A stretch of 64,000 nucleotides of DNA, taken from assembly GCA_004431415.1 (NCBI GenBank), contig QPMI01000029.1:186001-250000 (forward strand), in the 5' to 3' direction. The first letter of the stretch is position 1, and each line of letters opens with the position of its first letter. A program made the translations under genes and the position numbers. Of the stretch, positions 30,616-50,850 are shown in pieces. The notes beneath the pieces were generated by a model. It was not told the DNA's origin. It made no database searches and saw nothing but the letters and a program-made list of their open reading frames with translations. Source of the stretch: Cyanophora paradoxa CCMP329 (Eukaryota > Plantae > Glaucophyta).

Positions 30616-32172
30616 ATGCCTCAGAAATTCGTTTTAGCGTTGTCGGGCGGCGGTGCGCGTGGTATTATCATAACAAGGTTACTAACAGAAATTGAAAATA
30701 GAACTCGAAGACGTATAATAAATCTTGTCGATCTTGTAAGCGGAACATCCACAGGTGGTATAATTGCGATTGGGTTAAATATCAGACATCCTGAGATGCC
30801 CAATGAACCAAAACTAACAGCTAACGATTTGCATAATATTTATCTTACACAGTTACCGTTAATTTTTGCGAATCCGCGAAATATCATTGAAAATGCCCTT
30901 TTCAATACAAAATACGATGCTACACCACTGGAAAGTGCGATTTATTCAGTAACTGGTGAATCACTCATAAGAGATTCTCTAAAAGACATTGTGATTACAT
31001 CTTTTGATACTCAATATATGAAACCAATATTTATCACAAACGATAACAAATACAATTTTTTGCCGAATAAAATAGTAGCGCGTGCTACATCTGCTGCTCC
31101 AACATACTTTTCACCTGTTAGCATTGTAGATTTCAATAATGGCGTAATTGCTTCTCTGATTGATGGCGCAATTTCAGGAAACAATAACCCAAGTGTATGC
31201 GGTTATAGTCATGCAAAAAAGATTTATAATGAAGATGATGAAATTATAGTTATAAGTATATCTTGTGGTGAGGTTGATGCAAATTTAGAATCTGAATATT
31301 TCGGATATGCTTATGAGACTGTGAATAGCTGGGGTATTCTTTCATGGATTGCTTCAACAGAAGGAAGCCCATTAATTAATATGCTAATGGCTGCAAGCGA
31401 ACTATCCGCTCTTGATAAAATGGAAGAATTACTACCTCCAAATCTTGACCAAGGATATAATAGATATTTCCGTCTTTCTGTTCCGCTTCCAAATGATATA
31501 GTTCGATCACTTGATGATACATCTAAGATACCTGAAATGCTCGCATTCACTGAAACGTATATTGCTGCAAATGACGCTATGATAAATAGACTCTGTGATT
31601 TACTTGTAACAAATTATGAGATTAATAACCCTGTCAGATCGTATATATCTTCCACTCTTAATAACATACCTCCCATTGACGCTAATTGGTATCTTCTGTC
31701 AGATAATGCGTTTACCGCTTCGTCTGCGAAATTTGGAAAGGAGGCATTTAAAGCCCGCCCATCATTAACTGGATGGGAAGCGAATGCATCCGCAATTAAC
31801 GGAGTATGGGAAACGCCAACAGAATATCTGCAAATAGCATTCCCATATACATATGAGATCGCTTCGATAATTGCTTATGGTTCAGGTATAACGGCTGCGT
31901 TTATTAAGACTTTCAATGTTGCGACGTCGCAAGATGGGGTTTCATGGTCATATATCAAGTATGAAGGTGTGAATAGAATGTTTGTATGTGAGAATATAAA
32001 TAATGCTAATAACTCTGGGGATGTATCATATAACGGGGGCTTTCCGCTTGCAATAAACGATGTTTTCTATATAGGTTTCCCACTGAGAACAAGATATATA
32101 CGAATATATCCGCTGGTATATATAAATGCTCCGACTATGAGAGTCGATGTGACGGGCGCATTTATACGGTAG
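30616..32172 (+). CDS. Patatin-like phospholipase fused to a discoidin (F5/8 type C) domain
   Basis: SGGGARG, GTSTG, ATSAAPTYF, DGA motifs. C-terminal EYLQIAF...SQDGVSW...TRYIRIYP...MRVDV. Likely start MPQKF. Confidence 0.88.
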   Translation: MPQKFVLALSGGGARGIIITRLLTEIENRTRRRIINLVDLVSGTSTGGIIAIGLNIRHPEMPNEPKLTANDLHNIYLTQLPLIFANPRNIIENALFNTKYDATPLESAIYSVTGESLIRDSLKDIVITSFDTQYMKPIFITNDNKYNFLPNKIVARATSAAPTYFSPVSIVDFNNGVIASLIDGAISGNNNPSVCGYSHAKKIYNEDDEIIVISISCGEVDANLESEYFGYAYETVNSWGILSWIASTEGSPLINMLMAASELSALDKMEELLPPNLDQGYNRYFRLSVPLPNDIVRSLDDTSKIPEMLAFTETYIAANDAMINRLCDLLVTNYEINNPVRSYISSTLNNIPPIDANWYLLSDNAFTASSAKFGKEAFKARPSLTGWEANASAINGVWETPTEYLQIAFPYTYEIASIIAYGSGITAAFIKTFNVATSQDGVSWSYIKYEGVNRMFVCENINNANNSGDVSYNGGFPLAINDVFYIGFPLRTRYIRIYPLVYINAPTMRVDVTGAFIR

Positions 32173-32385
32173 AAAAAAGAGGGAATTTTTTCCGATTTTT
32201 TGATTATATATATGTATATGTATATATAATAATATTATTTATTATGTTTTCCAAACATTTTTTTCTTGGTCACACGGCATTACGGAGGTTTGGTATATAT
32301 TGTGTATATATGTCGTGACGCCACGTGTTCGAAAACGTCGACGTCACGTGTTCACAAACGTCACGTGTTCGGGTCGCTGTGACTC

Positions 32386-32642
32386 GCTGATCGAATCAGT
32401 TCGATTGCTGATCCAATCAGCTCGATTGCTGATCCAATCAGTTCGATTGCTGATCGAATCAGCTCGATTGGTGATCCAATCAGCTCGATTGCTGATCGAA
32501 TCAGTTCGATTGCTGATCCAATCAGCTCGATTGCTGATCCAATCAGCTCGATTGCTGATCCAATCAGTTCGATTGCTGATCGAATCAGCTGATCCAATCA
32601 GCTCGATTGCTGATCGAATCAGCTCGATTGCTGATCCATTGC
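32386..32642. repeat. 21-bp tandem array TGATC(C/G)AATCAG(C/T)TCGATTGC, about 12 copies
   Basis: Directly visible between the convergent patatin and integrase genes, preceded by three CACGTGTTC. Confidence 0.92.
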
Positions 32643-32824
32643 GTGTTCGCGGCATGCCCCACAGTAGGGACTTTTTAATTTTCCACCAAATTATTTAATT
32701 GTGGGTTCCGGAACCCAAAAATCCCCCCAAAATCATACAAACTGTTATAACTCTTCACCAACTCATCGCCTATCAAAACCGCGACCATCGCCGGAATCCT
32801 CTTTGCATGCTCTACACAGCTTCG

Positions 32825-34225
32825 TTACTTTCGCGAACCGGATCTTAGATTTACCCGGGTTTGAGGTGCTGAATATGTCTCTTTTGAGGTCTGGAAGTCT
32901 GTATACCATCTCTGGCTGTTGACTTCTGATAGTTTCTGGGTTCCTGCTATGGTTAACTTCTTTAATTCGCGTTCCGCCTTCCCTTTCTTCTTGGTTCTGG
33001 CTTGTGTTAACGGTTCTTCTGGGACGTCATCCGCTTTTTCGATGCCTTCCTTGCGAATCGCCGAATCGACCCGGGCTTCTTCTTTCGCTTGTTCCAGTGC
33101 ATCCACTGTGGGCGCTTCGTGGTATTCAACACCTTTGATAGGTAACAGTTCGTGGAAAGCGAATCTCCCTTCGACCATTTCGCCGTTCGGGTTTCGCAAC
33201 CGAAACTTGAAACCCTCCCGACCTTCAACAGTATAGACAATTCGCGACCAATTGACACCTTGTTTAGCGAATGGGTTCTTTTCTATTCTCACTCTCACAA
33301 ACATTCCCTGTTTCACACCATCCAAGTAAGCGATCGACTTCTTGAACCTCTCATCTTCTAAACCTATAATCTCTCTATAATGATCTTCCGTGGTCTCTGC
33401 TGGTTTTCTCTTAGTTGCTGAGTGGATGGTATTGTTATAGTTATACTCTATGTCTCCCAATACATCGAAGAATCGCGCTGTGTTGTTTGCTATGCAATAG
33501 TTCGTGATCAATCGTTTGATCTGCTTGTTAAACGCTTCGATTCTACCTTGGCTTCGATGATCTGCGACATCGCTAATCTGGTGGTCTATGAACTTCTTAG
33601 CAAGGTAATTTGTGAACATCGTATTAGTGAATTCGCTTCCGCTGTCACTCTGAACGCGAGCGATAGGTCGTGGAACTCTTCGTTGTAACTGTTCAAACGC
33701 CGCAAGTGCCGTAAGAGCGCTCTTATCTCTCATCGGAATGATGTAACCGGTGCGTAAGGTCGATTCCATCGCGGACATGAACGTATCGTAACCGTCGTTT
33801 TGGTTCTTGTATGCAGGGAAAAAGAGAAGATCGATTACGTAAGTATCGAGAGGTTGCCGAATCGGAATCATCGGGTCTCTCTTTCTTGAAAGAGTCGGTG
33901 CGTTTATCTGAACGACTTCCTGTTTATCATACCATTCTCTCATCTTCTTGTAATCCTCCTCTGGTAGTTCCTTTCTCATTGCTCCGAATCCCTTGTAACC
34001 TGTGCGCGGATCGTAAAACTTCTTCGCGATCTTCGATTCTTTTGTTACAGTCTCAGTAGGCAATGCCTTCGGGATCAGTTGTTTAACCATCTCAGACTTC
34101 TTTAAGATTCGTGTGTTCTTCTCTTCGACCGGAATAGTGATTGGTAGCATGTTCCCTTGGTCTTCTTTCATGCTCTTCTTTACGATTTTAGGAACAGGTC
34201 GCAATCCTATCTGTGCTGAGGGCAT
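32825..34225 (-). CDS. Retroviral-like (rve, DDE) integrase
   Basis: IDLLF, QSDSGSEF, GRIEAFNK catalytic triad and YNNTIHSAT; intact, 466 aa. Confidence 0.93.
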   Translation of the reverse strand: MPSAQIGLRPVPKIVKKSMKEDQGNMLPITIPVEEKNTRILKKSEMVKQLIPKALPTETVTKESKIAKKFYDPRTGYKGFGAMRKELPEEDYKKMREWYDKQEVVQINAPTLSRKRDPMIPIRQPLDTYVIDLLFFPAYKNQNDGYDTFMSAMESTLRTGYIIPMRDKSALTALAAFEQLQRRVPRPIARVQSDSGSEFTNTMFTNYLAKKFIDHQISDVADHRSQGRIEAFNKQIKRLITNYCIANNTARFFDVLGDIEYNYNNTIHSATKRKPAETTEDHYREIIGLEDERFKKSIAYLDGVKQGMFVRVRIEKNPFAKQGVNWSRIVYTVEGREGFKFRLRNPNGEMVEGRFAFHELLPIKGVEYHEAPTVDALEQAKEEARVDSAIRKEGIEKADDVPEEPLTQARTKKKGKAERELKKLTIAGTQKLSEVNSQRWYTDFQTSKETYSAPQTRVNLRSGSRK

Positions 34226-34410: not shown

Positions 34411-37400
34411 TTAAAGACCAAATGGAATGCTGTGAATGCCGTCGGCTGATATCTTCCGTTTGCTATCGAGTTGGTTTAGAGCGACCCTTCTGCTCTCCAA
34501 GTCATATAAGTTGTGGTCTTGCCTTCGCTTGTTTGTTACTGATACTGTTTTTATGATGCCTTCAAACAGACATCTCTTAAAGTCGTCAAAATGAACCTCC
34601 TTCGAGGAAGTCCCCGACATCTTTACTCTTTCGTTGGTCTCAGTTCTGAAAGCATAGAGTTTCGATCTCAGACCCACATACTCCATGATCTTTGCATTTG
34701 GAAACTCATTCTTATATTTACCAGGAACCATGCGGTTTTTGATACTCACGAGAGGATGGGATTTATCGTAATTGCTCCTATCGAGATACTCACCTATCTC
34801 TTTCATATCTTCATTGAGATTATTTGTTTTCAAGAACAAACAGAACGAATCGGTATCGTGGAACAGTAGTTTGGCGGTTTCCCACTTCTTCCTTACCACA
34901 TCATAGAAGAATCGATAATTATGGAGTTTCGCGAAATCCAAAACGAAAGCGCCAATTGCTACGGGTTTATCTAAATTAACATGCTTCGAATACATCTCGA
35001 AGGCAACTGCGTTTTCGTTTAATACATTGGTCGCCTTGATAAGCGGACTTGCTGCGTATTTCTTACAGAGTTTCTCACTGTTAGCGATCTTGACAGTTGA
35101 GCGACCCCTGCAAGATTCCAAGCATTTACCATAAATCGCATTGTTCATTAGTTTAAAGAAGTCGCTTTCGAAATGGTTGGTAGATTCGTGCCTGAGTAGA
35201 GTATTCAGACCAATGTAAGATCTCATGAATGGGGAGGTAGCGAATGAGAGAACTTTATGTATCTTTTTTAGAATGACACCCTTTTTAACGATGTAGTTAA
35301 GAAGAGGTCGAGCAATCACGTATTTATTCTTGGGCGTAAATGTCGCCGTAAGTTTGGGGTCTTTGCTGATCTTTTCGCCCGTCAGATCTAATAGTTTATT
35401 TTGATAATCACCAAGCATCTCATTGGTTATCACTTCTTTATTCACAATCAGTGGGAAATCGTAATGATCTTCAAGAGTTGTGGGGTATTCAAGATCAACT
35501 TCAATAAATGCGCTTCGTCCCTCTACCTCTTTAAGTGCCTCTGTGATGTCTTCCCATCGATAATCTCCGATGGGTAGTGGTTGACTGAGAGCATAACCAT
35601 AAAGATTATTCGCATCCAACAATACTATATGATCGTCGGCATTCTCTACCTTTGCGTATCGTGTGGGCATGGTAGCAAATCCACCTCTAATGGCTCTCTC
35701 AACAAATTCGTATTTCTCTACATCATCGATTAGTTCAATCTTAACTTTCGTATGTTTGAGCATAGCGTCCCAAGAGAGACCCGGTGCGCTAACGTAATGT
35801 GCGGGATCCAATCCGTATTGAGAAAACGCCAATTTGCGGAATGCTTCAAACTTTCTCATTAAATCACCCACATCCACAGATTGGAAATCCATGAAATGGG
35901 AAGCATCAATGAACTTCCACATGCCCCATTGAAGCGACAGGTATTGATCGAAATTCTTGCTTAGAATCTCAACACGTAGTTTATCGTCTTGTTGGGCGAT
36001 TTTGCGGAATATTCCATGCCCGCATTCATCCATGTGATCGACCACGATAGCTACCTTTGTTTGTTTAGAGATTCGCCGGTGGAGGTTACAGTTTCGGCAT
36101 GCCTTTCCGATGAAATCGCCGGATTGGTGACAATGATCGCGAACCGGGAAGTTTTCGTGGGTGAATCTCTGAGAGCAAATATAACAGTGTTTTGTTATCT
36201 TGTATTCCGCCTTCTGATCGTCTGTGAGTGGATGCATCGGAATATTTCTAAACAGCGTTTCAACGATTTCGGGTCTGATATCTTGGAGAGTAGCAAAGAG
36301 AGAACCAAGTGGATCGGTTCCCTCGAAATGGTATGCTCTCACTTCGAGTCCCATTACCACTCTCAGTGAAACCGCTTTAATCTCACGTTTACTCCTCTGA
36401 GCATCGATAGCAACTGAATGATCTTCAACTTTAACATAACAGATCACAGGAAGCCACACGGTTTTACGTAGATGTTGCAGACCGAATTCAATTACGCTTC
36501 CCGCTTTCGGGCATTTGCCTTTGCTCTCCCTCCAATCAATGCAGCGATTCGCTTCAATATGCAGGTCTAATTTCTCCTGAGTTCTAAAACGAGACAGACA
36601 GGTTTCACAGTAATAAATGCGACCATCACATGCTTTATCAAACGTAGTTTTCAGAAGACGACTAAAAGACATGATAGTGATGTAGTGTCCCCGATCATCT
36701 TCGGTGTTTTCGATAAGTAAAAGGTTTATCTTGGTCTTTCTCCTTGGGTTACTTGATTGATGGAGAGGAAAGAAACACTCTTTGGCGTTATCGGCTCCGT
36801 AAATGTTAATAGATAGATCGGGGTTCAGTTCTTCGAATCGATCGATTACCTCAGCATCACATGCAACGGGAAACTGAATACCATCGAAATTGAGTTCATT
36901 TAACCATCGGCGGTATTGGTTCGGTTCGTTGCTCTTGTGTTTGTTAATGTCCTTTCGATGCAGGTAAGCCAAAATCGCATACTTGAAGCAATCTTGACCG
37001 TCGATATTCTTAACGTTCACCGTTGCCTTCTTGGATGCGATCCATTCGGGAGTTGCGAAAAAACAACCACCCACAGGTGCGTATGACATGATTACACCTC
37101 TTAAAATTTCGATCTTCTCTAAACGGTAACTATCCACTTGCGTCATCTCCTCTTGCATTTTCTGTAACGCTTTGCGAACTTCTGTGTCTATGTTGCGGGA
37201 TCGGGTAATTACGAAATAATCGCTGTAAATGAATTTGGTGATATAGATGCGCGGATTACCTACTTTGGTAAATTTGCAAACGAAAGTCAGACGGACTTTA
37301 ACGGCTCTCAGTTGATCTAAGCGGGTTCTAATGCGTTGCGGTAGACTTGGTGCGATTCTTTCGAGAAATTCGATAGCATCCACGACAACTTCGTTTCGGG

Positions 37401-37692
37401 CGCGATAGGTTAACCACGAATACGCTTGATTCATTGCTTGACCATCTTCAATATCCGGTTCAATTGCTCCTAATCTCTGTCCTTCATCCATAAACTCCTC
37501 CATTCTCTGCATGCGATCGTAGAGGTCATTTGCAATCTCAGTGAGTTGACCTAATCGCGGTCGTCTATCTAAGATGGCGGCTTCTCTATCATATTCCGCT
37601 TCGGTGATCTCACCTGTAACTAAGAGAGTTCCTAACAATCCAAGTATTTCATTTTTCTTTTCTTTGATCAGTCTGTTCGTTTGGCGGGGCAT
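34411..37692 (-). CDS. Protein-primed family B DNA polymerase (terminal protein region, vOTU-like domain, Zn finger, EndoVII-like insert)
   Basis: LLDANNLYG, KLMNNAIYGK, HDTDS, KLYAF; DCFKYAIL...GHY; CETC...H; VRDHCHQSG...CRNCN. Intact, 1093 aa. Confidence 0.95.
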   Translation of the reverse strand: MPRQTNRLIKEKKNEILGLLGTLLVTGEITEAEYDREAAILDRRPRLGQLTEIANDLYDRMQRMEEFMDEGQRLGAIEPDIEDGQAMNQAYSWLTYRARNEVVVDAIEFLERIAPSLPQRIRTRLDQLRAVKVRLTFVCKFTKVGNPRIYITKFIYSDYFVITRSRNIDTEVRKALQKMQEEMTQVDSYRLEKIEILRGVIMSYAPVGGCFFATPEWIASKKATVNVKNIDGQDCFKYAILAYLHRKDINKHKSNEPNQYRRWLNELNFDGIQFPVACDAEVIDRFEELNPDLSINIYGADNAKECFFPLHQSSNPRRKTKINLLLIENTEDDRGHYITIMSFSRLLKTTFDKACDGRIYYCETCLSRFRTQEKLDLHIEANRCIDWRESKGKCPKAGSVIEFGLQHLRKTVWLPVICYVKVEDHSVAIDAQRSKREIKAVSLRVVMGLEVRAYHFEGTDPLGSLFATLQDIRPEIVETLFRNIPMHPLTDDQKAEYKITKHCYICSQRFTHENFPVRDHCHQSGDFIGKACRNCNLHRRISKQTKVAIVVDHMDECGHGIFRKIAQQDDKLRVEILSKNFDQYLSLQWGMWKFIDASHFMDFQSVDVGDLMRKFEAFRKLAFSQYGLDPAHYVSAPGLSWDAMLKHTKVKIELIDDVEKYEFVERAIRGGFATMPTRYAKVENADDHIVLLDANNLYGYALSQPLPIGDYRWEDITEALKEVEGRSAFIEVDLEYPTTLEDHYDFPLIVNKEVITNEMLGDYQNKLLDLTGEKISKDPKLTATFTPKNKYVIARPLLNYIVKKGVILKKIHKVLSFATSPFMRSYIGLNTLLRHESTNHFESDFFKLMNNAIYGKCLESCRGRSTVKIANSEKLCKKYAASPLIKATNVLNENAVAFEMYSKHVNLDKPVAIGAFVLDFAKLHNYRFFYDVVRKKWETAKLLFHDTDSFCLFLKTNNLNEDMKEIGEYLDRSNYDKSHPLVSIKNRMVPGKYKNEFPNAKIMEYVGLRSKLYAFRTETNERVKMSGTSSKEVHFDDFKRCLFEGIIKTVSVTNKRRQDHNLYDLESRRVALNQLDSKRKISADGIHSIPFGL

Positions 37693-38066: not shown

Positions 38067-38262
38067 TAGGCGCTTGTAGGCAGTTAGGCACTTCTTAATC
38101 GAGAATTAAAAAGAAGTCCCAAATACATCAACTTGTGTTTTTCAAAACGTTGATTTTATTTTTTATAGAGAGTTTCCAGGAAAGGTGCCTAAGTGCCTAA
38201 CGTCAATTAAAAGTGCCTAACCTCAATTGAAAAGTGCCTACTTCAATTATTCAAGTGCCTAC
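38067..38262. promoter_or_regulatory. Internal copy of the element A iteron block directly downstream of the helicase gene
   Basis: About 180 bp near-identical to 22028-22208, about 65 bp after the helicase stop at 38327. Confidence 0.65.
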
Positions 38263-38326
38263 TGTCCATTTCCAGTAAGGTATAAAAAAGAATGTATATA
38301 GAAATCAGAATCATAACAGAAGTATT

Positions 38327-40721
38327 TTACTCATCATCATCATCAAACTCAACAACAGTAGGTGTCTTATCAATCTTCTTCACACCCTTGTAGCCACGAT
38401 CATAACCAGTTCCAACCTTCTTGCGAACTGCATTCTTGTCATATTTCGCTCCAAGCAAACCCATCACAGTTTTAATGCGATTTGCAGACATATTCAGTCT
38501 CAGTTGCTTGATCTCTTGCTCAACCATCTTGGAAGTTACAGAGTCGGATGAATTTCGAGTGAATTCGAACACTGATCTGATCAGAGACATTTCATCACCT
38601 GCATCTTCCCGGAATTCATTAATATCCTCAGCAACCTTCCCAGACACCACGAATTTCTGAGATTTGTAGGCTTCAAACACCATCCATTCGAATGCTCTAA
38701 TTATCTCAGGACTTTTTAGCAGAACACTCTTGATATCTTCCGAAGCCAATCTCACACAAGGAGAGTTCATTTCCTCAACAGTCTTTTGATCAACGAATTT
38801 GTGGGGTGCTTGAACAATACCATGGTTTGAAGGGTATCAGATGGGGAAATGGGTGGAACATCATTCATGATCATCCACAAACGACTTTGGAGGCGAATAT
38901 TGACCTCATTTTCATAAAGAACACGCATGCATTGAACATCACCACCAGATTCCTTCTTTTTGATCATTGCACCATTCACCTTAATATTTGTGTTTGAGAC
39001 ATCGAATTTCATCTCTTGGGTGAATGTCAGACGACGAAATTCACAAGGTTTCATCCACTTTAACTTGGAGGTATCGTTGTCATCTGAGTTCTTATTCAGC
39101 AAGAATGCCTCCCCACTGATGGTGTGCACATATCCACTTCCCCAGGTATTTTCATTGAGATTCACATAAACCCCCTTACCACAATTGCGTTCACCAATTG
39201 ATAATCCCCACTGTTTATCTTCGTATTTCCCAGCCATTGCACGAGCTGTGAATTCCAGAGCAGAAGAAATCGAATCATTTCCGAAAACGGGTTCCAGAAT
39301 CTTGTCGAAAAGGGTTTGAATATCCGAATCAGATGGCTTGATCACATATCCATCTTTGTCAACATGAAGATCCCTCTCAATTCGAGTGGTAGAATAGATC
39401 TTGTCACATTTGTCCCATGGTGTGAGCTTCTTTGTCTCGAAATCATACACACCATTTCGGTAGCACAATTTCCCAATGGTCGATGACCACATAATATCAT
39501 TGTAGAACACACGATTATTGGGCAGAAATGCTTTGGCTGTCTTGATAATTCGATCTGCCCCAGTAAGATTGGTAGAATATGGCTTCAAGTTACCTTTGTC
39601 ATCTTCCTTGAACATGAAGCACTGCATGCACAATTTCAACATTATATTGTAGACCATTGTGGAATCATCAGTCCACAGAAAATCGTCTGTCTGAGCGAAT
39701 ATACGACCATCAGACATGACCACTCGCCCCTCAATCGATTTAACAAATGTGAGAGCAGCTTCACGATCATCCCGAACAATATTAAGAGGAGAGGATACAC
39801 TTTTTGAATTTGTTGGAATCGTAAATCCTTGATCCATTGGTTTAATCATCAACTCAATCTTGTAGCCAGTGACATTCTCAATATACTTGGTAGCATCACA
39901 GAGAATATCGTGGAGACGAGTTTCGGGTAATTCAGGGGCTTTTCAACCATGCAACCATCATAAACGAGAACGCCAACTTTTACAGCAAGTGAGGTTAAAT
40001 ACTGACAAAGCGCAATCAGACATTCATTCTCCAATTTGCAGAGAACCATATTAATGGTTGAACCAAAGATGTTATACTCCTTCTTTCGCTTGCAAATCAA
40101 GAAGAAGTTGTGGTTTTCGGGCATGCTTGCAATTTGAGCGTGAATTCCTGTGATTTCGTTCTTAACTGCTTTGAACTTGGGGTGGTTCAGCAGCTCCTTG
40201 TTATCAATTGAGCCCCCACCCCCGTTTACAACAGAAAGAAACGCTTTCTTGATATCTTCGCGAGAAAGTCCCGATTTCTTGCTTATATCAGCAATGATAC
40301 TATCACGATTGTCGACATAATCAGCGAGACCCTCACAAACGATTTCATTTTTTTCACAATACTGAATGAGAAGTGTGGGATGCGCATTTTTCATATCGAT
40401 ATCGTAGTAGAAATCGCGAGCAAGAGTGTGGCGGAATTCTCTGGGCATTCCTTGCATTGATGCTTGCTTCTTCTTGATGTGTTCAAGATTCACGAAATAA
40501 CGACCAGTATTATGTTTGCATTGATGATATTTAACTTCAATGCGCCCATCTCGCTTCAAATCCTTGAAATAACGTTGGAGAAGGGTGAGAGTAGCTGTTG
40601 CATCAATATCAGGTCGATACTCCAAAGTCTCGAAATTATCAATCAGGTATTTGAGAGTGGAGCGATCCACCTTCTCAAAGAGAGCGATTTTAAGTCCGTT
40701 CGGTTGCTGAGAGTTGAACAT
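38327..40721 (-). CDS. TVpol (PolA-related primase) fused to a D5-like SF3 helicase; split by two 1-nt frameshifts
   Basis: DIDMKNAHP and LVYDGCMV (TVpol); CYRNGVYDF, GERNCGKG, TFTQE, MNDVP (SF3). Adding one base at the G4 runs 39935-39938 and 38803-38806 joins three ORFs into about 800 aa. Confidence 0.85.
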
Positions 40722-40920
40722 CTTGGGGTCTTCTTATACTTAATGGAGAAAAGAGTTTCTCCGGATTCCTGTCATTTTTTGGCGGCTAACCTTTAAGTGG
40801 TTGATATCTCTTCAATTACCAAAAACGGCAATCGGGAGATGGTATGGGATCTATCGAAGCATATCGATAGACCGCTCGAAAAATGAGTAATTGGGTTCAG
40901 CGGTCAAATGGGTATTTCCC

Positions 40921-41157
40921 TTAATACTTTCGTGGACGTCCCCGCGACTTGTTTTCGATTCCCTCCCGCTCCTTACGACGATAATATGAAGCGAGCGATT
41001 GCGCCTTCTTATACTCCCGATAAACCGGGTCTTCGTTGTAGAGCGTTCGCTTCCTGAGAGCATCTCTCATCTTGTAATTGGCGCGGGTCTCATCTTCTTC
41101 ATCAACAAATTCTATTACACTCACCGTATCTTCGGTAATATGAATTACTGTCTCCAT
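40921..41157 (-). CDS. Small basic protein with a C-terminal AT-hook
   Basis: Ends KSRGRPRKY. Confidence 0.6.
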   Translation of the reverse strand: METVIHITEDTVSVIEFVDEEDETRANYKMRDALRKRTLYNEDPVYREYKKAQSLASYYRRKEREGIENKSRGRPRKY

Positions 41158-41365
41158 GTTCCACTTTATATATAGTTGAGAAAATCTTTTACCACTCTGT
41201 ATTATGCGTTACGTCTTTAAGTATTTTATGGCGTCATTTTTTGGTGACCAAAGCCAGTTGGTGTCTACGTTCTTCAATTGCAGATTTAACAGCGTAAATC
41301 CTTCGTTTCGATAGTATGATGGAGTAGATCTCTTCGAGTGACATTTGATACCATAACCAAAGATA

Positions 41366-41587
41366 TTATTTATGATCGTTTTGCGCAAACGATCGGCGAC
41401 GGACAGTCTCAGTTTCCGTAACGGTGACTGTCTCAGTTGTTATCGAATCTTGTGATTGCCTTCGCCCTCCATCGCTTTCACCATCTGAGAAATCCATTTC
41501 GAATTTCGTATCGCAGCAGTCATTATGACAATCGGTTACGCAATGCATCTCAAACATCTCAATGATCTTTTTCAGAAACTCCATCAA
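41366..41587 (-). CDS. Hypothetical protein (73 aa)
   Basis: Compact ORF in the co-oriented run. Confidence 0.5.
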   Translation of the reverse strand: MMEFLKKIIEMFEMHCVTDCHNDCCDTKFEMDFSDGESDGGRRQSQDSITTETVTVTETETVRRRSFAQNDHK

Positions 41588-41610
41588 TTTCCTCTAATAA
41601 ACAGAGAAAT

Positions 41611-42342
41611 TTATAACCAAACTCTCCGCTTGTATGCTGTGGGTGCAACACCTTTATCAACTTCCGCTTTGGTAGCGCCAGGTTCAACTGTTCCCTTTTG
41701 GGTCTTTGTCTTCAACTCATCTACCGCTTGTTCGTCAATTTGAGTTTCCTTCTTACCAATGAATTGTTTATCGGGAACACCAGTAATACCCATTCGGAAT
41801 ACTTCTTTGCGCAGCATTTCCTTGATTTTAGCGCGTTCTTTCTTCTCAGTTACATACTGTTCAAGAGCGCTTGATTTCGCTTCCAGATCCTTTAATTTAG
41901 CGGTCATCTCATCCCATTGCGCTCTCTGGATTCGGTGGATGTTTTGAGTTGGCGCAACCTTGTAAGTAACTTCACCAGCCATCGATTGAATTACCTTATC
42001 GGATTCTTTGGAAACACCTTCACCCTTGCGAGCGAGTGAAAGATCTTTTAGACCAAGTTCACGATCGTCGGCAGCACCGATAATTCGACGCGCACCTTCA
42101 CCGACCGCCTTCATCTTCGAGACTTCCGGCGAAATGTTCAGTTGCTCACTTTGGGAGGTCTGCGGCGCTTTATCACCGGGCGCTTCTTCATACGCCGCAT
42201 TTAAGGGGTCTTCTTCCTGTTGCGATGGTTTCACTTCGCTCATTCCGTTGAATTTCATCGGTGTAGTGTTGAGAGATCCATTACTTTCACCGCCGGAATA
42301 TGACATAGCACCAGCGGGAACACCTCTACGTTTCGGCGGCAT
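41611..42342 (-). CDS. Hypothetical protein (243 aa, coiled coil, basic N-terminus)
   Basis: Clean ORF starting MPPKRRG, next to the ATPase; possibly a virion core protein. Confidence 0.7.
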   Translation of the reverse strand: MPPKRRGVPAGAMSYSGGESNGSLNTTPMKFNGMSEVKPSQQEEDPLNAAYEEAPGDKAPQTSQSEQLNISPEVSKMKAVGEGARRIIGAADDRELGLKDLSLARKGEGVSKESDKVIQSMAGEVTYKVAPTQNIHRIQRAQWDEMTAKLKDLEAKSSALEQYVTEKKERAKIKEMLRKEVFRMGITGVPDKQFIGKKETQIDEQAVDELKTKTQKGTVEPGATKAEVDKGVAPTAYKRRVWL

Positions 42343-42370
42343 TGTATATTTATAACATACAGAGATAATT

Positions 42371-43153
42371 TTACAATCCCCTCTTATATCGCATCAACTT
42401 ATTCGTGTGAACAGCGCTTTTAATCTCTTTTGGCGCTTCCTCCTTCTCAGGCGGTTTTAATTCATCTTCTTTCTTTTTTGGTTTGCGATGGAACCGAGGA
42501 AACTTAAAGTCTTTAACGAGTTCCGCTTTATCAACATAGTATTCCACCGAATAATTCGCAGAACTCCAAATGAGAAACTGATAGGAGTGAACGTATTCCT
42601 CAAACATCTTATAGAAAGCGTCTTTATCCCGCATGATATTGTATTCTTCTTCAATGGCTTCCAGTTCTTTGCGATTGGCGGCACTTAGGAACATTGCATA
42701 ATCTGAATTGACGCGAATGGTTGAAGAAACCTTACGCAGTTTCTGAGTTATGCAGAAAATTGTAATCGCCGAGTGGCGGCCGCGCGAATACAGAGATCCA
42801 ATAATTTTATCACGGGTAAGGTCTACAATCTCATTGTCTATAAGATCATCGAGAACAACACATAATTGATTAACGGGTTCTCCTTTCTCAATTTTCTCTT
42901 GTCTTTCATCGAGAAGTTTAGCGATGTAAGGCGCATCCCATTTACCGAGCTGTAATGTTGCGACATCATCCCAAAAATGATTGAATGATGTCCCACTTAT
43001 AACAAGAACAACATCTAACTTTTTCGCATCGTGAAGTTGTTTTAGCCAATACTTTACCGCTTCTGACTTGCCCGTCGCGCTTTTTCCGATTGCTAATACG
43101 CGAAAAGGGGGTTTAATCATCTCACCAGCATTAAATTCGGGAACGTCAGACAT
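42371..43153 (-). CDS. A32-like (FtsK/HerA) genome packaging ATPase
   Basis: GKSATGKS, VVLDDL, SRGRH...ITQ. Likely start MSDVPEF. Confidence 0.92.
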   Translation of the reverse strand: MSDVPEFNAGEMIKPPFRVLAIGKSATGKSEAVKYWLKQLHDAKKLDVVLVISGTSFNHFWDDVATLQLGKWDAPYIAKLLDERQEKIEKGEPVNQLCVVLDDLIDNEIVDLTRDKIIGSLYSRGRHSAITIFCITQKLRKVSSTIRVNSDYAMFLSAANRKELEAIEEEYNIMRDKDAFYKMFEEYVHSYQFLIWSSANYSVEYYVDKAELVKDFKFPRFHRKPKKKEDELKPPEKEEAPKEIKSAVHTNKLMRYKRGL

Positions 43154-43214
43154 GGCGTAGTAGATCTTTCTTAATAAAGATAGATAAAAATAACGAAATC
43201 TTACTGATAATGGT

Positions 43215-44612
43215 TTAGAGATTAATGCGGCGAATTCCGTCCTTATCGACAATAATGAACGAATGCATGAGAGCGCGAACGTTAACAGTAATTGTGCGAT
43301 CAGCAGGAAGATACAGAGTGAGGAACGATGACGACGAGTTCGTAAGGTCAACATATCCAGATTGGGCAATGTTGCGAATCGCCTTCTCACCATCAACACA
43401 GAATGGAAGACCGGTAAGGACGTAACGGTTTGCTTCCTTGTCCATATTCGAGCATTTGAAGGCATCGGCGATGAGTTCCGCACCTTTGAGTAGTGGGATT
43501 GGCTCCGTCGAATAAAGACGCTGTCCATTAATCTCACAGGTCATCGTGATATCCTTCGCATTCGCAAGCGTTTTAAGGACACTGTGAGAACCATTGGAAG
43601 TATCGACACCATCGGCATCGCGAACAGAGACAAGAAGAGCATAAACCAGACCAGAGATTTGGCTAAGATTGATTCGGTTGGGTTGAGTGTTACCTTTCGC
43701 AGCAACACCAATAGCATCGACGAAACCGATATCGAGAGCAGGAATAGCCATCCCTGTGGTCTTAACCTTCTCAATAACAGTTGCGAACAGTTCATCAGAA
43801 ACGTTGATAGCATGCATGTAGAGACGAGGAGACTTAATGGAGATGTAATGGGTCATTGGAGGAACAGTTCCAGCAACTTCGAACCCAGTAATACCGCCTG
43901 TGGTGATGTTTTGACCAACATTAGCAAGTGTAACATTGGTAGCGCTTCCCAGTCCATCATCGGTGGATTTATCGGCAGCATCAGTAACAACTGGAAGAGA
44001 GCGACCACCATAAGAAGTTTCAAGGTAACCCTTGTTAGTTTCCTTAAACCACACAGTGATAACGGCTTCGCCCGAGAGAGCGCCAAGTGGTAGGTAGTGG
44101 TTCAACCACGGCACCGGGATTTCAACGAAGAAAGCACCACCTTTACGGTTGGTTCCGTGAGCGGGAATACCATGAAGCATTCCCATTGAACGCTTCTTTT
44201 TCGCCAGTTGATCCTCGCTGTAATAAACCAGTGGGAAAATCGCAAGAAAATCGCTTGGGACGTGGTAGGTGTAAGAACCATACGAGAATTCAAGACGCTC
44301 TACAAGCGCACCTACGGGGCGGGTGTAACCATTGCGCACCAGGTCGGTATCGCCTTCGAAAGCGGTTAGTTCGGGAAGATCGAAAGCGAGTTCGATTTTA
44401 CCAACAAAGTTGTAGCGGGGAAGTTTGAAAGAAACGCGTTGACCTACATTGTTTTCATAGGTTGTCGATGGACTAACAGTTACGAGAACGGGTTTCGTCT
44501 TCGATTCCAGACCAAGCATAAGCGAGTTATCGAGGAAGAACGCTTTGGCTTCCTCGGGCGTTGTTAGCGCCTCTTTCAGAGAAAGACGTTGAAGGGTCGA
44601 GGTAACATCCAT
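43215..44612 (-). CDS. Double-jelly-roll major capsid protein
   Basis: 465 aa, beta-rich. N-terminal pattern VSFKLPR..FVGKIELAFDLP...LVERLEFSYG is typical of DJR MCPs. Lies between the ATPase and the penton genes. Confidence 0.8.
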   Translation of the reverse strand: MDVTSTLQRLSLKEALTTPEEAKAFFLDNSLMLGLESKTKPVLVTVSPSTTYENNVGQRVSFKLPRYNFVGKIELAFDLPELTAFEGDTDLVRNGYTRPVGALVERLEFSYGSYTYHVPSDFLAIFPLVYYSEDQLAKKKRSMGMLHGIPAHGTNRKGGAFFVEIPVPWLNHYLPLGALSGEAVITVWFKETNKGYLETSYGGRSLPVVTDAADKSTDDGLGSATNVTLANVGQNITTGGITGFEVAGTVPPMTHYISIKSPRLYMHAINVSDELFATVIEKVKTTGMAIPALDIGFVDAIGVAAKGNTQPNRINLSQISGLVYALLVSVRDADGVDTSNGSHSVLKTLANAKDITMTCEINGQRLYSTEPIPLLKGAELIADAFKCSNMDKEANRYVLTGLPFCVDGEKAIRNIAQSGYVDLTNSSSSFLTLYLPADRTITVNVRALMHSFIIVDKDGIRRINL

Positions 44613-44666
44613 TCTGTTTTGCTTTTACTATACAAAAATATAAAAATTCTGTGAATGATCCTTAAT

Positions 44667-45671
44667 TTACGCGAATCCAGCAATATTTGGATAGAAGGGG
44701 TGGGTCTCTCTCATTCTCATTTTGAAATACTCATAGATCGGATCACCGGCAGGTTCATCACCATAGCGGATTTCGAAAGTCAGATGCACAGGTTGCCCCT
44801 CGAAATCAATTAATTCATTTTGAGCATTCACTACATCTACCGAGAGTTGCGATAGTGATAGTTTCTTATTATAGTATTTATACAGCGGATTTGCTTCCGT
44901 CGAATTGTAAACAACGTGTTCCGCAAAGTCTTTATCTTGAACCGTGAGTTTATGGAAGTATCCAGTAAGTAGACCATCGGCACATTGGACGAGGTCACCC
45001 AGTTCTTTTACTCTCACGAAAAAGACGTTATCTTTACAGGTCTCAGTTGGGAATGTCGAGATTATACCGTTTACATTTGCACCTGTAAAAACGGAACTTG
45101 TATCTGTTCCATAGACTTGTGATTTAATAAACTTGTTTCCCCAGCGTCCAGCATCCAGACCCAAGATTCGAGCGTGTCGTAGCGCTTTTTCGACTGCGGA
45201 AACAGAAGGATCTTTTGCATATGAGAAGCAAATATAGAATTCCACAGGAGCATAAAAGATAACTCTTTTTGCGGTTACATCCCAACCACAGCGAATTGCA
45301 GAAGGAGGCGAGAGATTCTCAAAACGGTTATTGATTCGGGCAACGAGTTGCTGATGAGTATTGATTGGGGTTTTTAGACCTGCACCAGGTCTAATAGAAC
45401 GCCAACTATCATATAGAATCTCAGGAGCATTTGCACCAGTGGATGTGGATTTTTGGCTGAAATTGATAATAAAAGCATCTTCCACTGTTGCATCCCCAGG
45501 TTCTGTTTCACCGCTAATGAGCGGGATGGAGTTATAGAATTCCGCCGAGACAAGGCGAACCGCTCTTACATTCTCATATGTCTTTGGGAGATCCGCAACA
45601 AACCGAGATGTTGGAGCATCCAGATTAGGTAGCGTTTTGAAGGAAGACACTTCAACGTATTCCACAGGCAT
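44667..45671 (-). CDS. Minor capsid/penton-like protein 1
   Basis: LPKTYENVRAVRLVSAEF...LSQLSVDVVNAQNELIDFEGQPVHLTFEI matches the single-jelly-roll penton pattern. Confidence 0.72.
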   Translation of the reverse strand: MPVEYVEVSSFKTLPNLDAPTSRFVADLPKTYENVRAVRLVSAEFYNSIPLISGETEPGDATVEDAFIINFSQKSTSTGANAPEILYDSWRSIRPGAGLKTPINTHQQLVARINNRFENLSPPSAIRCGWDVTAKRVIFYAPVEFYICFSYAKDPSVSAVEKALRHARILGLDAGRWGNKFIKSQVYGTDTSSVFTGANVNGIISTFPTETCKDNVFFVRVKELGDLVQCADGLLTGYFHKLTVQDKDFAEHVVYNSTEANPLYKYYNKKLSLSQLSVDVVNAQNELIDFEGQPVHLTFEIRYGDEPAGDPIYEYFKMRMRETHPFYPNIAGFA

Positions 45672-45699
45672 CTTCTTTTATCTATAACCATATAATAAA

Positions 45700-46602
45700 A
45701 TGATTCGGCTTGTCAATGTCGATAGTAGAGATCGATTAGATGGACAAAGAGAGAACGCTTACAAGGTCTCACTAACCACACCAATAACAAGACCGCGACA
45801 GTGTCGTATCTTGTATGCAGAGATTCCCAACAGCATTTATAATTCGATCGGAACCGATTATATTATGATTCGTTATAACATTGGTGGTTTCATCCTTAAC
45901 CAGCAGATATTTCCGTTACCGAGTGGTTACATAAACCAAGGACACTTTGGAGTTACTCAACCATATAATTACGGTTTAAACTACGAAGTTCTTGAAAATA
46001 CATTCTTTAAGATATACTACAACTCGACAACATACAAGTTAGAATTTTATAGCAGCGTTCCATTCGAAATAGCAGCGTCAAACAATAGAATCGCCAAACT
46101 ACTTGGTCTTGCTTCAACATTATTGGTAAGCCAGCAACATAATTTAGAAGATAACAGGTCTGTATTCGCTCCTGAGAATTTCTTATCGTATGCAGGAAGA
46201 CCAATAACACCTGATCACCCACAATGGGGAATTACGTTTGAAGGTGTAGATCCCGTGCCGTTGCAACACAAAGCAACAAGTCCAAAGATGGCGGATATGA
46301 AGGCTGAGCAATACTTGTATATGCACATCAAAGAACTCTCTTCTTTTGCATCGAACCACAATATAGTCCCGAAATCGCAACCGCAGAATCAAGGCGCGAT
46401 CTTGCGATTACAATTGAGTCAGGACATCGGGAAGTATGTTTACCATAGCGGAGAGCATGGTGAATACATAAAAATAACAGACAAAAACCTTGTTATTCGT
46501 GAATTAACAGTTGAGTTTCGTGATTATTTTGGTGATCTTGTAGATATGAATGGTATCGATAATTCGTTTCAGTTGGAGTTTGTAGCTATTGGATACGATT
46601 AA
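45700..46602 (+). CDS. Minor capsid/penton-like protein 2
   Basis: VNVDSRDR...ILYAEIPNSIYN...IRELTVEFRDYFGDLVDMNGIDNSFQLEF. Confidence 0.78.
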   Translation: MIRLVNVDSRDRLDGQRENAYKVSLTTPITRPRQCRILYAEIPNSIYNSIGTDYIMIRYNIGGFILNQQIFPLPSGYINQGHFGVTQPYNYGLNYEVLENTFFKIYYNSTTYKLEFYSSVPFEIAASNNRIAKLLGLASTLLVSQQHNLEDNRSVFAPENFLSYAGRPITPDHPQWGITFEGVDPVPLQHKATSPKMADMKAEQYLYMHIKELSSFASNHNIVPKSQPQNQGAILRLQLSQDIGKYVYHSGEHGEYIKITDKNLVIRELTVEFRDYFGDLVDMNGIDNSFQLEFVAIGYD

Positions 46603-47203
46603 CTATTGGGATATATGGTTTGAAGATATCAGCAACAACACCTTTCTGATCCTCTGTATACCATCTGTTGTTTTCACGAACCCAACGAGCGCCATTCTGT
46701 TTAAGGTATTTACGTAGAGTCGCTCGGGTCGCAATCTTCCATCCATGCTCTTCAAACTTAGCATGATAAGCACTAAGATCTCTGGGAATGTGGAAATAGT
46801 AACGCTCACGATGTTCTTCTTGTCCATAGCATATCCCAATTGTATCAATTACGTCTTCGTGAGTCTTTGTAGTGTTGAAAAGAAGATCATGAAAATTAAC
46901 AACAACGATGAAATCAAGTTCAGCATTACGCACTTGATTAAGATGGCTAAACACACCATCATGATTATAATTAATATGAGCATAGAAGAACCGATCATCG
47001 CGAGTTCTCGCACAAATCCGATCCGAATTTCTCCGAAAATAACCAAAACAAACCATTTGATCCATTCCAGGATAAGAGTATGTTCCAATCTTTCGATGCA
47101 AAACCTCAATAGTTTCAGCAAGATCAAGAATATCCTTCACACCAAATCGCATTTCAGCAATCGGAACCGAGAAGATCGGCTCACCTTCGAAGAGATACGC
47201 CAT
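46586..47203 (-). CDS. Hypothetical protein with a C-terminal DUF5710-like motif
   Basis: 205 aa; LKQNGARWVRENNRWY. Confidence 0.6.
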   Translation of the reverse strand: MAYLFEGEPIFSVPIAEMRFGVKDILDLAETIEVLHRKIGTYSYPGMDQMVCFGYFRRNSDRICARTRDDRFFYAHINYNHDGVFSHLNQVRNAELDFIVVVNFHDLLFNTTKTHEDVIDTIGICYGQEEHRERYYFHIPRDLSAYHAKFEEHGWKIATRATLRKYLKQNGARWVRENNRWYTEDQKGVVADIFKPYIPIVNRIQ

Positions 47204-47302
47204 GACACTGAATTACGTCTGAGAAAATCTTTTACCCGGTTTACTCTATACTATCGCTTCTTCCTTAAATCATTTTGGGTTGCCCACGAGCATCATTTTT
47301 TG

Positions 47303-48789
47303 AAAGTAAGACCTCAGTAATATCACAATTGATAGATGAGAGAATAACAGAGATCTTTTCAGGGTTGGAGAAAGCGGAGAAGCAGATAGCAGCGCGATTT
47401 CCGAGTTAATCACACTGTTAATGGTTTGGTAGGCACTTTATATTTCTCAGATAATGAAAGTGAATATATCATATCTCTATTTCTCTCACTGAATATCGTT
47501 TGGTAGGCACTTTTTAATTGAAGTTAGGCACTTTTTAATTGAAGTTAGGCACTTTCAATTGACGTTAGGCACTTAGGCACCTTTTCTGGAAACTCTCTAT
47601 AAAAATAAAATCAACGTTTTGAAAAACACAAGTTGATGTATTTGGGACTTCTTTTTAATTCTCGATTAGGAAGTGCCTAACGCGCCTACGCCGCCTACCG
47701 CGATTAAAAAAGTGCCTACTTCGATTAACCCGCTCCATTTCAGTAGCCCGTTTTATATCTAAATGATATCCGCCGATCACGATAAAAAAGTGCCTAACCG
47801 TTTTCATCTCAGCGAAATCTCATCGATTGTTTAATTGGACATAATGCTGTAACCATCTCTTCCAACAAAATTACATCGATTAATTCAATTGAGATTGATA
47901 CACCTAAGATACAATGTTTTTACAGTAAAAAACAGAATCCAATCTTATCAATTGTTTAATTGGACATAATGCAACTCTGGGGTCAATTTTGATACAGTAA
48001 AAATCTTACCCGAATCTCATCGATTGTTTAATTGGACATAATGCAGTAACCATCTCTTCCAACAAAATACGCCGCAATCTCAACGATTGTTTAATTGGAC
48101 ATAATGCAGTAACGAGTGAATTATTTTCATCCGATATCTCATCGATTGTTTAATTGGACATAATGCAGTAACGAGTGAATTATTTTCATCCGATATTTCA
48201 TCGATTGTTTAATTGGACATAATGCAGTAACGAGTGAATTATTTTCATCCGATATCTCATCGATTGTTTAATTGGACATAATGCAGTAACCATCTAATCC
48301 AACAAAATACGCCGCAATCTCATCGATTGTTTAATTGGACATAATGCAGTAACGAGTGAATTATTTTCATCCGATATTTCATCGATTGTTTAATTGGACA
48401 TAATGCAACTCTGTGTGAATTTTTGCGATTTCCGATAGAATGGGCGGTGGACTACTTCAATCGTGATTATATCAATCGTGATTATATCATAAATTTATGT
48501 TCCTTCAATCGAGATTATATCAAATTTGCATAAAATACATATTAATCGCGTTTATATCAATAAATTAATCGATATTATATCAATTGTTTAATCGAGATTA
48601 TTGAAATTTAATATAAAAATGCATATTTATCGATTAATTTATACATATTTATTAACATAAAAATACATATTTATCGATTAAATATACAAATTTATTTAAG
48701 AAAAACACATAAAGAAATACAAATTTAAATCCAGGAGCGAAGCGCGAAGCGCGTAGCGGAGGGATTTAAATTTGTATTTCTTTATGTGT
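47303..48789. repeat. Right TIR of element A (complete, about 1.49 kb)
   Basis: Reverse complement of the left TIR plus an AT-rich distal 380 bp, ending at ...TATGTGT before host GCCGGG. Confidence 0.93.
48705..48789. other. Terminal hairpin: perfect 28-bp stem with a 29-nt loop containing three GCGNAGC
   Basis: ACACATAAAGAAATACAAATTTAAATCC (48705-48732), loop AGGA-GCGAAGC-GCGAAGC-GCGTAGC-GGAG, then the reverse complement at 48762-48789. Confidence 0.93.
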
Positions 48790-50850
48790 GCCGGGCTGCA
48801 CGGGCGCCGCCACGGGCCCGAGGGCGCATCCCAGCGAACACGCTGCTCAACTGTCCGTGCGAGCTTTCTTCGCCCCGCCCCTCCCCCCCTCCCCCCTAGC
48901 TTGCTTCGTCCGCCGTTTTTTGGAGCGGATCCAACGCTGCCGTTTTTTCGCCCCCCCCCCCCCCCCCCCTCTGCCGTTTTTTGGAGCGGAACCAACGCTG
49001 ACGCTGGCCGTGCAGCACGCATCCGCCGGCAAAGAGCTCTACTGTGCGTCGCCCCGGCCCTCCACTGAATGAAATGACTGACTGAATTCGACTGGCGGTG
49101 CAGTGGGTTAGACGTTGCTCTAGCTGCAGCAACGGCGGCCGGGGAGGCTGATCGCGGTGCCGTCCCTGCCCGCCCACCCGAGCATGCGCAGCGGCTTCTG
49201 ACGGTGCCGCGCCTCTTGGGCCAGGAAGCTGGCGGAAGCCCGGAGCCAGTGACCATCGCTGTTCCAGCCTGGCTAGCGGATCACACGTACGCCCGTACCC
49301 CTTCCGCGGCATCAATATATAACCCCTCCCCGCTCATTCTCTCCGCACTACAGGCAGGAAGCAGCGAAGCAGAGAGCAGCGCGCGCCCGAGTTCTTCAGC
49401 AGCGACGTCGACCGGCCGAGAGGAAGTCAATTTGATCCGTCATATAGGGGCAGGAAAGCATGTAGAAAGCGTTTCAGGAAGCATTTTTAGATCAGTGTAG
49501 ATGCGCTATAATGTCTGAGCAGCGTTTGGTAGTCGGCAACCCGAGAAATTCGGTCTGCCAGCTGCCATACAAACCCAACCACAGGTGGTTGGGAATGTAT
49601 GGCAGTTGGCAAGCGAGGGGTACGGGGAAATCCGTGCAAATCGGGCGAGAATTGTGTTAATTTACGACAAAATTAAAACATAAAATAGACCGAATTACCT
49701 AATTTTGGGGGGGAGAAACACGAAAATTGCGCTATTTTATCGAAATTTCGGCTCCCACCCCCCGATCAAAATCCCACCGTGTGGCACCAAATTAAAATAT
49801 TGAGCACGAAATTGGCCACTTCCTAGCGCGAGCTCTAGGTCGCCGGGCCGGCGCTCCTCGCCCAGGGCGCGTACAGACTCCGCGCATGTTCCAACGCCTT
49901 CATAGACATATATATAAGATAGAGCACCCCTGTGAAACTTCAGAATCCGGGTTCTCAATAGTAGGCGGCCTTAGCGCGAAATTGCCTAGGGGCGGCATCG
50001 AACCCGGGTTGTTCCATTCCAACAGAATTCTTGAAGTTCGGGTACCTTAGCGGGACTTAACAATAGGTAGCTAGCGACTCCGTGACGGGCCGGAGGTTCC
50101 TAGCGATCTTAGCTGGGTTTATGAGAAGGCTCTATTTCTACATGCATCATTGAAGTTGTCCTTCTAACCCAGGGCATGCGCAGAGCCGGCTCTGCCTTCG
50201 CGTACGCGTGCGCCCTCGGGCGCGTCGCCGTGACGCGACGACGGTAATGGTGGCCACTCCGCCCCGGACGCCCCGTGCGCCACGCCGCGCTCGCGCCATC
50301 CCTTCCCCCGCGCCGGGCCCCGCGGCGCTCCTCTGAGGCGGCGGGACAGGCCGCGGGCGGCTGTGGTGAGCGGGCGGCTGTGGTGAGCAGGCAGGCCCTC
50401 GCGGCCTCCGCCCAGCAGCTCATCGCCGCCTCCGCCTCGGGCGTCGGCGTGTGCGCGCCGGCCCCCGCCCCGGCCTCCCGCCCCCCGGCGCTTGCTGAGA
50501 AACAAGCCGCAGGCCGGCGGGGCGCGGGGCGCTGCGGCTCATGGAGGTGGCGGCGCTCGTCCTCGCCGCCGCCTCAAGGCCGGCAACGAGCGCCTGTGCG
50601 CCGGCCGCCCCGCCCCGCCCCGCCCCGCCCCGCCGCCTCGCCCTGAGGGGCGCGGGGTGCCCAGCAGCCTGACGATGGCGGCGGACAAGTACGCGAGGCT
50701 CTTCGCGCACGCCGACGCCCCGCGGCCCTCGCCCTGCAGCTCCTCCACCGCCACCGCGTCGACTCCCCGCTCCTCGCCGCCCCACCGCCCACCCCGCCCG
50801 CTTCTCCCTCGTCGCCCTCCTCGGCCTGCCCGCCCCGCCGCTCGTCCCTT
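48790..50850 (+). repeat. Host 2.67-kb tandem array resumed right of element A
   Basis: Starts at the position equivalent to 20543; next unit marker at 50136. Confidence 0.93.

Follow-up and report, generated by a model that had tools for sequence, protein, structure and literature searches.

The closest described systems in which a replicative helicase is encoded next to its origin are those of the staphylococcal pathogenicity islands (SaPIs), phage P4, and pRN1. In SaPIs, the origin lies right after the helicase stop and consists of 6-12 penta- or hexamer iterons opposed around an AT-rich centre; the Rep proteins end in a C-terminal winged helix, unrelated Reps go with different origins, and PriRep5 has a fused primase (PMC9371898). 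In the P4 record (NC_001609), 46 nt separate the alpha stop from the end of crr, and an octamer is common to crr and the distant ori. pRN1 requires a stem-loop behind its helicase gene, for which no specific footprint was obtained (PMC4234260, PMC2777425), and the winged helices of RFX, P4 alpha, and pRN1 ORF904 have been grouped together, with helix 3 and the wing touching DNA (PMC2777425). For Polinton-like viruses (PLVs), inverted repeats were proposed as the origin of the primase-helicase, an idea that is thus already in print as a hypothesis, and mobile helicases were proposed to invade the TIRs of PolB elements (PMC11296320). The same work reports that the TIR and the end-module flank of Gezel-14T share a repeat of >300 bp (Barth et al., PMC11296320), and second replicases have been found bracketed by repeats (preprint 10.64898/2026.10.13.758929). 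In their accessible text, these last two sources mention no 'iteron' and name no winged helix, site, word, or helicase-word pairing, and that of PMC10120064 and of 10.1101/2022.07.28.501842 names no origin. A literature search conducted mostly outside subscription journals returned no iteron origins for Polintons, PLVs, or virophages. Polinton-like viruses and virophages swap their replication genes frequently.

The window (the whole 64-kb stretch of DNA that was analysed) contains two AT-richer insertions, A and B, within GC-rich eukaryotic DNA. Element A (about 21280-48788) encodes a pPolB, an rve integrase, an A32 ATPase, and a capsid-like protein between TIRs, and is a Maverick/Polinton-like virus. 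Its protein-primed-type PolB (pPolB; 34411-37692, minus strand) retains the polymerase motifs, with altered exonuclease motifs and about 100 aa of the exonuclease domain missing; its closest homologue, P0012, shares the loss of the usual motifs of that domain and of about 100 aa, which makes a lineage devoid of proofreading likely. The integrase (32825-34225, minus strand) has a Pfam match of E 4e-4, under the curated cut-off. The likely major capsid protein (43215-44612, minus strand) has a feature score of 0.98 to clusters in which Capsid_N is found on 12-30% of the members, and the A32-like ATPase lies at 42371-43528. The left TIR (21301-22407, plus strand) holds tandem repeats of 59-63 bp, an iteron block, and the 3' end of the AdoMetDC gene, and is 99.7% identical to the right TIR (47303-48407, minus strand), past which A extends to a terminal hairpin at 48705-48788. 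The left end is without the outer portion seen at the right end and has apparently been cut there. Since the TIR includes the last 35 codons of AdoMetDC (22301-22407 and 47303-47406), the right TIR bears a gene fragment. Element B, from the window start to about 10039, is an A-related copy with broken reading frames, whose pPolB segments match A pPolB at 32-58% and whose integrase matches that of A at 50-71%.

The primase-helicase gene of A (38327-40721, minus strand) is split into three ORFs in the window, and directly 3' of it, at 38067-38261, lies a block that we predict to be a helicase-binding origin. In this block, three TAGGC words on the plus strand (starts at 38067, 38077, and 38085) face five reverse-complement words (starts at 38187, 38195, 38215, 38236, and 38257) across a core of 95-97 nt that is 71% AT, with one 25-nt window at 84%; the nearest word is 65 nt past the helicase stop. 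The facing repeats around an AT-rich core that the earlier note had described at this place are therefore confirmed, and so is their recurrence in both TIRs; the repeat words it had given for the two arms fit only in part, the full TAGGCACT occurring in a single copy of the left arm and AGTGCCTA being exact in four copies of the right arm, at a spacing of 20, 21, and 21 nt. The arms are unequally spaced, with 8-10 nt on the left versus 20-21 nt, or two helical turns, on the right. The left-TIR block (21912-22281) has 5+6 TAGGC words in the orientation of the internal block, and the right-TIR block (47430-47798) is an inverted copy, also with 5+6. Identity to the internal block is 93% over 199 nt for the left copy (22011-22207), with sharp edges, and 92% for the inverted right one (47503-47698). 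All 17 exact TAGGCACT sites of the window fall inside these three blocks, whose facing-array score (35-38) was reached in 0/200 dinucleotide shuffles. Neither GC nor AT skew inverts at this internal position.

B repeats this layout with a word of its own, as had been claimed before. Its internal block (36-152) comprises 3+2 GTGTCAC-type words at 36-136, spaced by 8-10 nt around a core of 55-59 nt, and a flank motif at 139-152; its terminal block (9425-9542) has 2+3 such words at 9443-9540. The two are 74-81% identical, and their facing-array scores of 17-26 were reached in 0/200 dinucleotide shuffles. The B core is 61% AT overall, about the element background, with one 25-nt window at 84%. The helicase stop of B more likely lies near 200 than at 162, because the frame ends in a wing-like GYIGLRKI motif, and this places the nearest word about 65 nt away. 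A scan of both elements returned the three blocks of A and the two of B, plus one weak AT-rich match at 48542. The B words GGTGTCACA and TGTGAACA resemble the P4 octamer GGTGAACA and have P4's 9-nt tandem spacing, a likeness that reflects an ancestral preference or chance; TGACA-like words are common among the relatives described below. We also considered the block at 36-152 as a left TIR of B and rejected this, since the identity of 74-81% ends at the block edge.

The primase-helicases of the two elements are themselves distinct. That of A consists of a putative PolA-like (TVpol-like) N-terminal domain, assigned from motifs, a D5-like SF3 helicase, and a predicted C-terminal winged helix. At both frame breaks of the gene, the window disagrees with short-read contigs from three DNA runs, so that the breaks are likely assembly errors. 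The helicase matches a PHROG primase (E 3.5e-11) and, by family profile, poxvirus D5 (E 3e-7). In the N-terminal ORF, D-x-D-x-x-N and DG motifs appear conserved in the alignment by eye, and searches gave no Pfam match and no library or structure match to a PolA domain. The C-terminal tail (38327-38770, minus strand; 147 aa) was modelled from a 52-row alignment at pLDDT 85, versus 37 from the single sequence. Residues about 53-135 of this model match RFX5 (Z 8.6, rmsd 2.6, 77 aligned), RFX1 (Z 7.5), and the P4 origin-binding domain 1ka8 (Z 5.2, rmsd 2.8, 73 aligned), the last Z being within the common range for winged helices. Foldseek with the model found nothing at E<=0.001 (best 0.066), and sequence searches of Pfam and PDB with the alignment of the tail returned nothing beyond weak matches, spurious EF-hand ones among them. 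From the model, the tail is predicted to be a winged helix of the RFX/P4 type. The helicase of B (200-1453, minus strand) has a D5_N domain, is in pieces, and shares 36-40% identity with PriCT-2/D5 proteins of giant-virus type, which share just 21-24% with the helicase of A; tblastn of the A helicase against B gave no match at E<0.01. By sequence comparison, the two helicases belong to different subfamilies carried on a shared pPolB/integrase backbone.

How do these blocks compare with the known origins? The SaPI-like layout claimed for A holds against the description in PMC9371898. First, the position is directly 3' of the helicase in both A and B. Second, every block has two or more iterons per arm, the iteron numbers of A (3+5 internally, 5+6 in the TIRs) are within 6-12, and B has five per block, one short. 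Third, as to an AT-rich centre the two elements differ, with 71% AT in the core of A and 61% overall in that of B, where one 25-nt window reaches 84%. Fourth, an SF3 helicase is combined with a C-terminal winged helix (in A, predicted). In contrast to SaPIs, which are bacterial phage-inducible islands lacking a PolB or double jelly-roll capsid of their own, A is inserted in eukaryotic DNA and brings a capsid-like protein, pPolB, rve integrase, A32 ATPase, and TIRs, it has the block in three places, both TIRs included, and its helicase has a putative PolA-like N-terminal domain. As in P4, the same word is found behind the helicase and at distant sites (three sites in A, two in B), the B word resembles P4 TGTTCACC in sequence and 9-nt tandem spacing, and the modelled A tail matches the P4 winged helix. 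Unlike here, P4 has a DnaG-type primase (PMC4234260), while the A N-terminal ORF is without a Pfam match, and P4 has a doubled crr of 120 bp where A has its second and third sites in the TIRs of a linear element. pRN1 ORF904 resembles the A protein in joining a primase, an SF3 helicase, and an RFX-like winged helix, with a cis element right behind the gene, but this element is a stem-loop devoid of iterons, and specific binding was undetected. The TVpol-D5 replicase has a PolA-like catalytic core fused to a D5-like helicase (PMC2579912); beside its D5-like helicase, the A protein shows by eye two conserved aspartate motifs that may belong to such a core. Most likely, then, the A and B blocks work like origins of the SaPI/P4 type, yet are not members of those families.

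The similarity between the A and B blocks is modest and clearest in the flank. The flank between helicase stop and last iteron (38262-38326 in A) is homologous in A and B and contains a CAGTAAGG-type motif, a variant of which adjoins all five blocks. Local alignment of A with B recovers solely the 50 nt from helicase stop to first iteron (0/1000 shuffles as good) and gives no support for homology of the cores. With global scoring, only 0-3/1000 shuffles do as well in four of the six flank pairings, whereas A-internal against A-TIR (54/1000) and against B-terminal (153/1000) do not reach this level. For the cores, an alignment is obtained only in global mode and with a lenient scoring that was selected post hoc (1/1000 shuffles). 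The terminal core of B fits the A core in forward orientation (14/1000 shuffles) while the flank of that block is reversed, which points to an inverted segment between the arms. The scaffold that the earlier note had seen in both elements thus stands in part, for the flank and, under the lenient scoring only, for the core, and its homologous block with a swapped iteron needs rewording: the words do differ beside a shared flank, but it is the whole helicase that differs with them.

To place A and B among other elements, relatives were collected, duplicates removed at 90% tail identity, loci with <300 nt downstream dropped, and a fixed block detector applied; the family has 8,233 members at E<=1e-10. 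In 9/31 non-redundant non-marine relatives of the A type, the 350 nt that follow the helicase stop contain a block, versus 1/185 control ORFs of the same loci (Fisher 8e-8, uncorrected for kinship); in the other 22 non-marine relatives none was called at this place. In the marine clade, 1/52 has a downstream block and many have one 2-8 kb from the gene. Among B-type D5 proteins, mostly from contigs of giant-virus size, the count is 1/70 (L165). Two blocks each were found in L072 and L201 (marine) and in L227 (non-marine). The expectation that relatives carry such blocks beside their helicases is therefore upheld by the enrichment in non-marine relatives and fails for 51/52 marine and 69/70 B-type D5 loci. 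The words of relatives include TTAGGAGGG, GGTAGTTG, GTTGACAC, GGGACAAA, ATGCTCCAA, and TTGTCAT; they are alike in close helicases (L047 and L066) and unlike in distant ones. The facing TAGGCA pattern of A recurs in one locus among 259, L033, which is narrowly the nearest to A's helicase by tree path (1.54 versus 1.56-1.62). L031, from the same clade, has a different word on one arm only, at a contig end, and L192, with the best identity to the A helicase (39%), has no block, whether judged with the detector or visually. blastn of the blocks against the relatives gave a best E of 0.017.

A Pfam scan of eleven of these loci was informative for type in six, five with an A32 ATPase (L209 among them) and one with an rve-like ORF, and tblastn of A pPolB, integrase, and capsid against the 259 loci gave no match. 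In L033 (2003-5329) and L013 (8579-11260), the A-type helicase is fused to an AEP and not to a PolA-like domain, so that the primase part is exchanged independently of the helicase and winged helix. Scans for close relatives with the A helicase alone, and with A pPolB and its nearest homologue, found nothing, so that they offer no outside relative of the backbone with another helicase. A word-first scan of 125 loci returned no helicase of A's or B's family. Seven of these are phage loci with facing TAGGCAC arrays, two of them (L276, 3296-3530; L314, 5000-5460) with the array placed at the stop of a protein that by eye resembles a primase-helicase and by profile is unrelated to that of A. L311 has repeated one-sided arrays and no helicase among its ORFs of at least 150 aa.

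The marine clade offers a comparison of words with the predicted DNA-binding domain. Across 26 marine loci with hand-called words, and a tree built from the proteins without the winged-helix tail, the residue at one wing position goes with the word as follows: N or A for GTCCTC (17 rows), P for GTCCAC (5), Y for GTCTAC (2), H for GTTCCA (1), and D for CATTAC (1). Each of the four word changes in the clade coincides with a change at this position, and one wing change (N/A) leaves the word as it was. All three independent pairs agree, which at this number puts significance out of reach (sign test p 0.25, with the position picked after inspection). The predicted co-variation of the word with the helicase C-terminal domain is thus in keeping with these pairs and with the place of L033 next to A, and stays below significance.

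Taken together, these comparisons lead us to regard the block as probably a helicase-cognate origin of SaPI/P4 likeness, exchanged jointly with the helicase and duplicated into the termini. The cassette of helicase and cognate origin proposed in the earlier note is favoured in every computable prediction examined, by the layout, the predicted winged helix, the enrichment, and words that track kinship; the right-arm spacing of two helical turns and the two phage loci with arrays at the stops of putative primase-helicases speak for it as well. It is weakened by the many relatives that have no downstream block, by the single full-length word in the left arm of A, by a B core that as a whole is no richer in AT than the background, and by GC skew that does not switch at the block. 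The process would involve 1) reading of the block words by the C-terminal winged helix of the helicase; 2) binding of one hexamer to each arm; 3) melting of the core and priming by the fused N-terminal domain; 4) extension of the primer by pPolB or a helper polymerase, these last three steps being modelled on SaPI and P4; 5) loading of the helicase near each end by the copies about 0.6-1 kb inside the TIRs, where it might open the ends for pPolB or start copying the integrated element from within; and 6) homogenisation of the words, by which internal and terminal copies come to agree again whenever a helicase has been swapped, which is likely given that the A and B flanks are homologous while the words differ at all copies. 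As A already has a pPolB, an internal origin is not obviously needed. What this locus adds to the published hypothesis is a copy of the block in both TIRs of a pPolB element, and the exchange of helicase and word as a pair while the backbone stays the same.

A further step is more tentative, and we would sooner doubt it than assert it: the wing of the winged helix might set a word of 5-9 nt, one pPolB virus family of this host might be in the midst of turnover, with unrelated primase-helicases replacing each other on a shared backbone and each rewriting the TIR words, and the resulting private origins could act as incompatibility groups among endogenous viruses, beside a pPolB likely to lack proofreading. 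If the cassette is real, a design of bacterial satellites is at work in eukaryotic endogenous viruses, a swapped helicase must bring its sites along into the termini, and replication of pPolB elements is not primed purely at the ends. A and B provide a candidate origin of 200 bp with a named predicted binding domain, and natural cognate and non-cognate pairs exist in A versus B and in relatives with GTCCTC, GTCTAC, or GTCCAC.

Other functions of the block were weighed. We think it unlikely that the helicase binds the words for regulation or end-unwinding only, with no priming at the block, whether by autorepression, by control of the small downstream ORF and pPolB, or as a loading pad for strand displacement by pPolB, the forms being judged jointly. 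The internal block does end 45 nt upstream of the start of a 102-aa ORF located ahead of pPolB, 3/25 non-marine relatives have a block just upstream of the helicase start, and the fold-backs at the element ends suit end-primed replication. However, facing arms around an AT-rich core exceed the requirements of an operator, the TIR copies are not directed at any gene start, and L013, L047, L208, and L231 have a block yet no tblastn match to A pPolB.

Distinctly unlikely, in our judgement, is a role that depends on structure, the block forming a hairpin or cruciform, or one as a hot spot of recombination at which modules are exchanged; any inverted arms would then suffice. Such a role is suggested by blocks that fold better than shuffles (z -3.3 to -6.4), by the B core that is apparently inverted between its two copies, by the stem-loop of pRN1, needed though no specific footprint was seen there (PMC4234260, PMC2777425), and by the repeats around second replicases (10.64898/2026.10.13.758929). 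The unequally spaced arms of A pair poorly, however, and the words follow helicase kinship and wing residues. Moreover, the A block flanks the helicase on one side only, TAGGC being absent from either strand at 38668-47429.

A promoter, terminator, or polyadenylation signal for factors of the host or of a helper giant virus is very improbable: the internal and left-TIR copies of A each trail a same-strand stop codon (helicase and AdoMetDC), and the flank motif is common to A and B regardless of the helicase, but the word is absent from the other 70-nt gene flanks of A, differs between two viruses of one host, and comes with a block at just one of the 185 control ORFs. We give hardly any credence to the internal block as a neutral duplicate of the TIR, for which its 93% identity and sharp edges would speak, or to the words as sites of the integrase or the pPolB terminal protein, because the enrichment beside helicases has already largely refuted this, the words differ between A and B while pPolB and integrase are conserved, the blocks lie well inside the ends, and relatives with no match to pPolB or integrase have helicase-side blocks.

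For the reading of the block as an origin that moves with its helicase, the other copies in the host are informative, as far as they are visible through contig depth and loose ends of 30 nt only. Summed contig depth is about 1,900-10,600 for pPolB versus 320-750 for the helicase. The depth of the left-TIR core is close to that of TIR flank plus helicase in all three runs, at 698 versus 385+312 in X1, 800 versus 456+320 in X16, and 1508 versus 904+718 in X3, contig depth not being copy number and the ratio of TIR flank to helicase being 1.2-1.4, not 2. The block core lies far under the backbone in depth, and the AdoMetDC gene next to the block is several times deeper. Most members of the family thus appear to be without both the A-type helicase and the A-type TIR block, and their joint absence fits co-segregation of the two. 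At these TIR positions, different words appear in the loose ends, with the B-like word GTGTAACAGG right after A-type tandem repeats in one contig, and GTGTCAAC beside the AdoMetDC stop in two runs.

Several other features of A and B were observed. The outer TIRs of A contain about ten tandem repeats of 59-63 bp (21280-21900 and 47806-48424), which are very deep in the contigs, and variants of these repeats in other copies finish with a GTGTCA-type word. The right end of A (48705-48788) folds into a perfect 28-bp stem whose 29-nt loop contains two GCGAAGC words (z -12) and abuts the host junction exactly, and at the end of B, 9768-9795 pairs with 10013-10039 (z -8.9); these fold-backs are possible self-priming or end-resolution structures. 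A host tandem repeat of 2.68 kb is present on both sides of A, with about 740 bp on each (20543-21280 and 48790-49526). Within A, two genes with C1q domains lie at 25211-27329, a gene with patatin and F5/8 lies on the opposite strand at 30616-32172, and a tandem array of 21 bp occupies 32344-32655, between the patatin and integrase genes.
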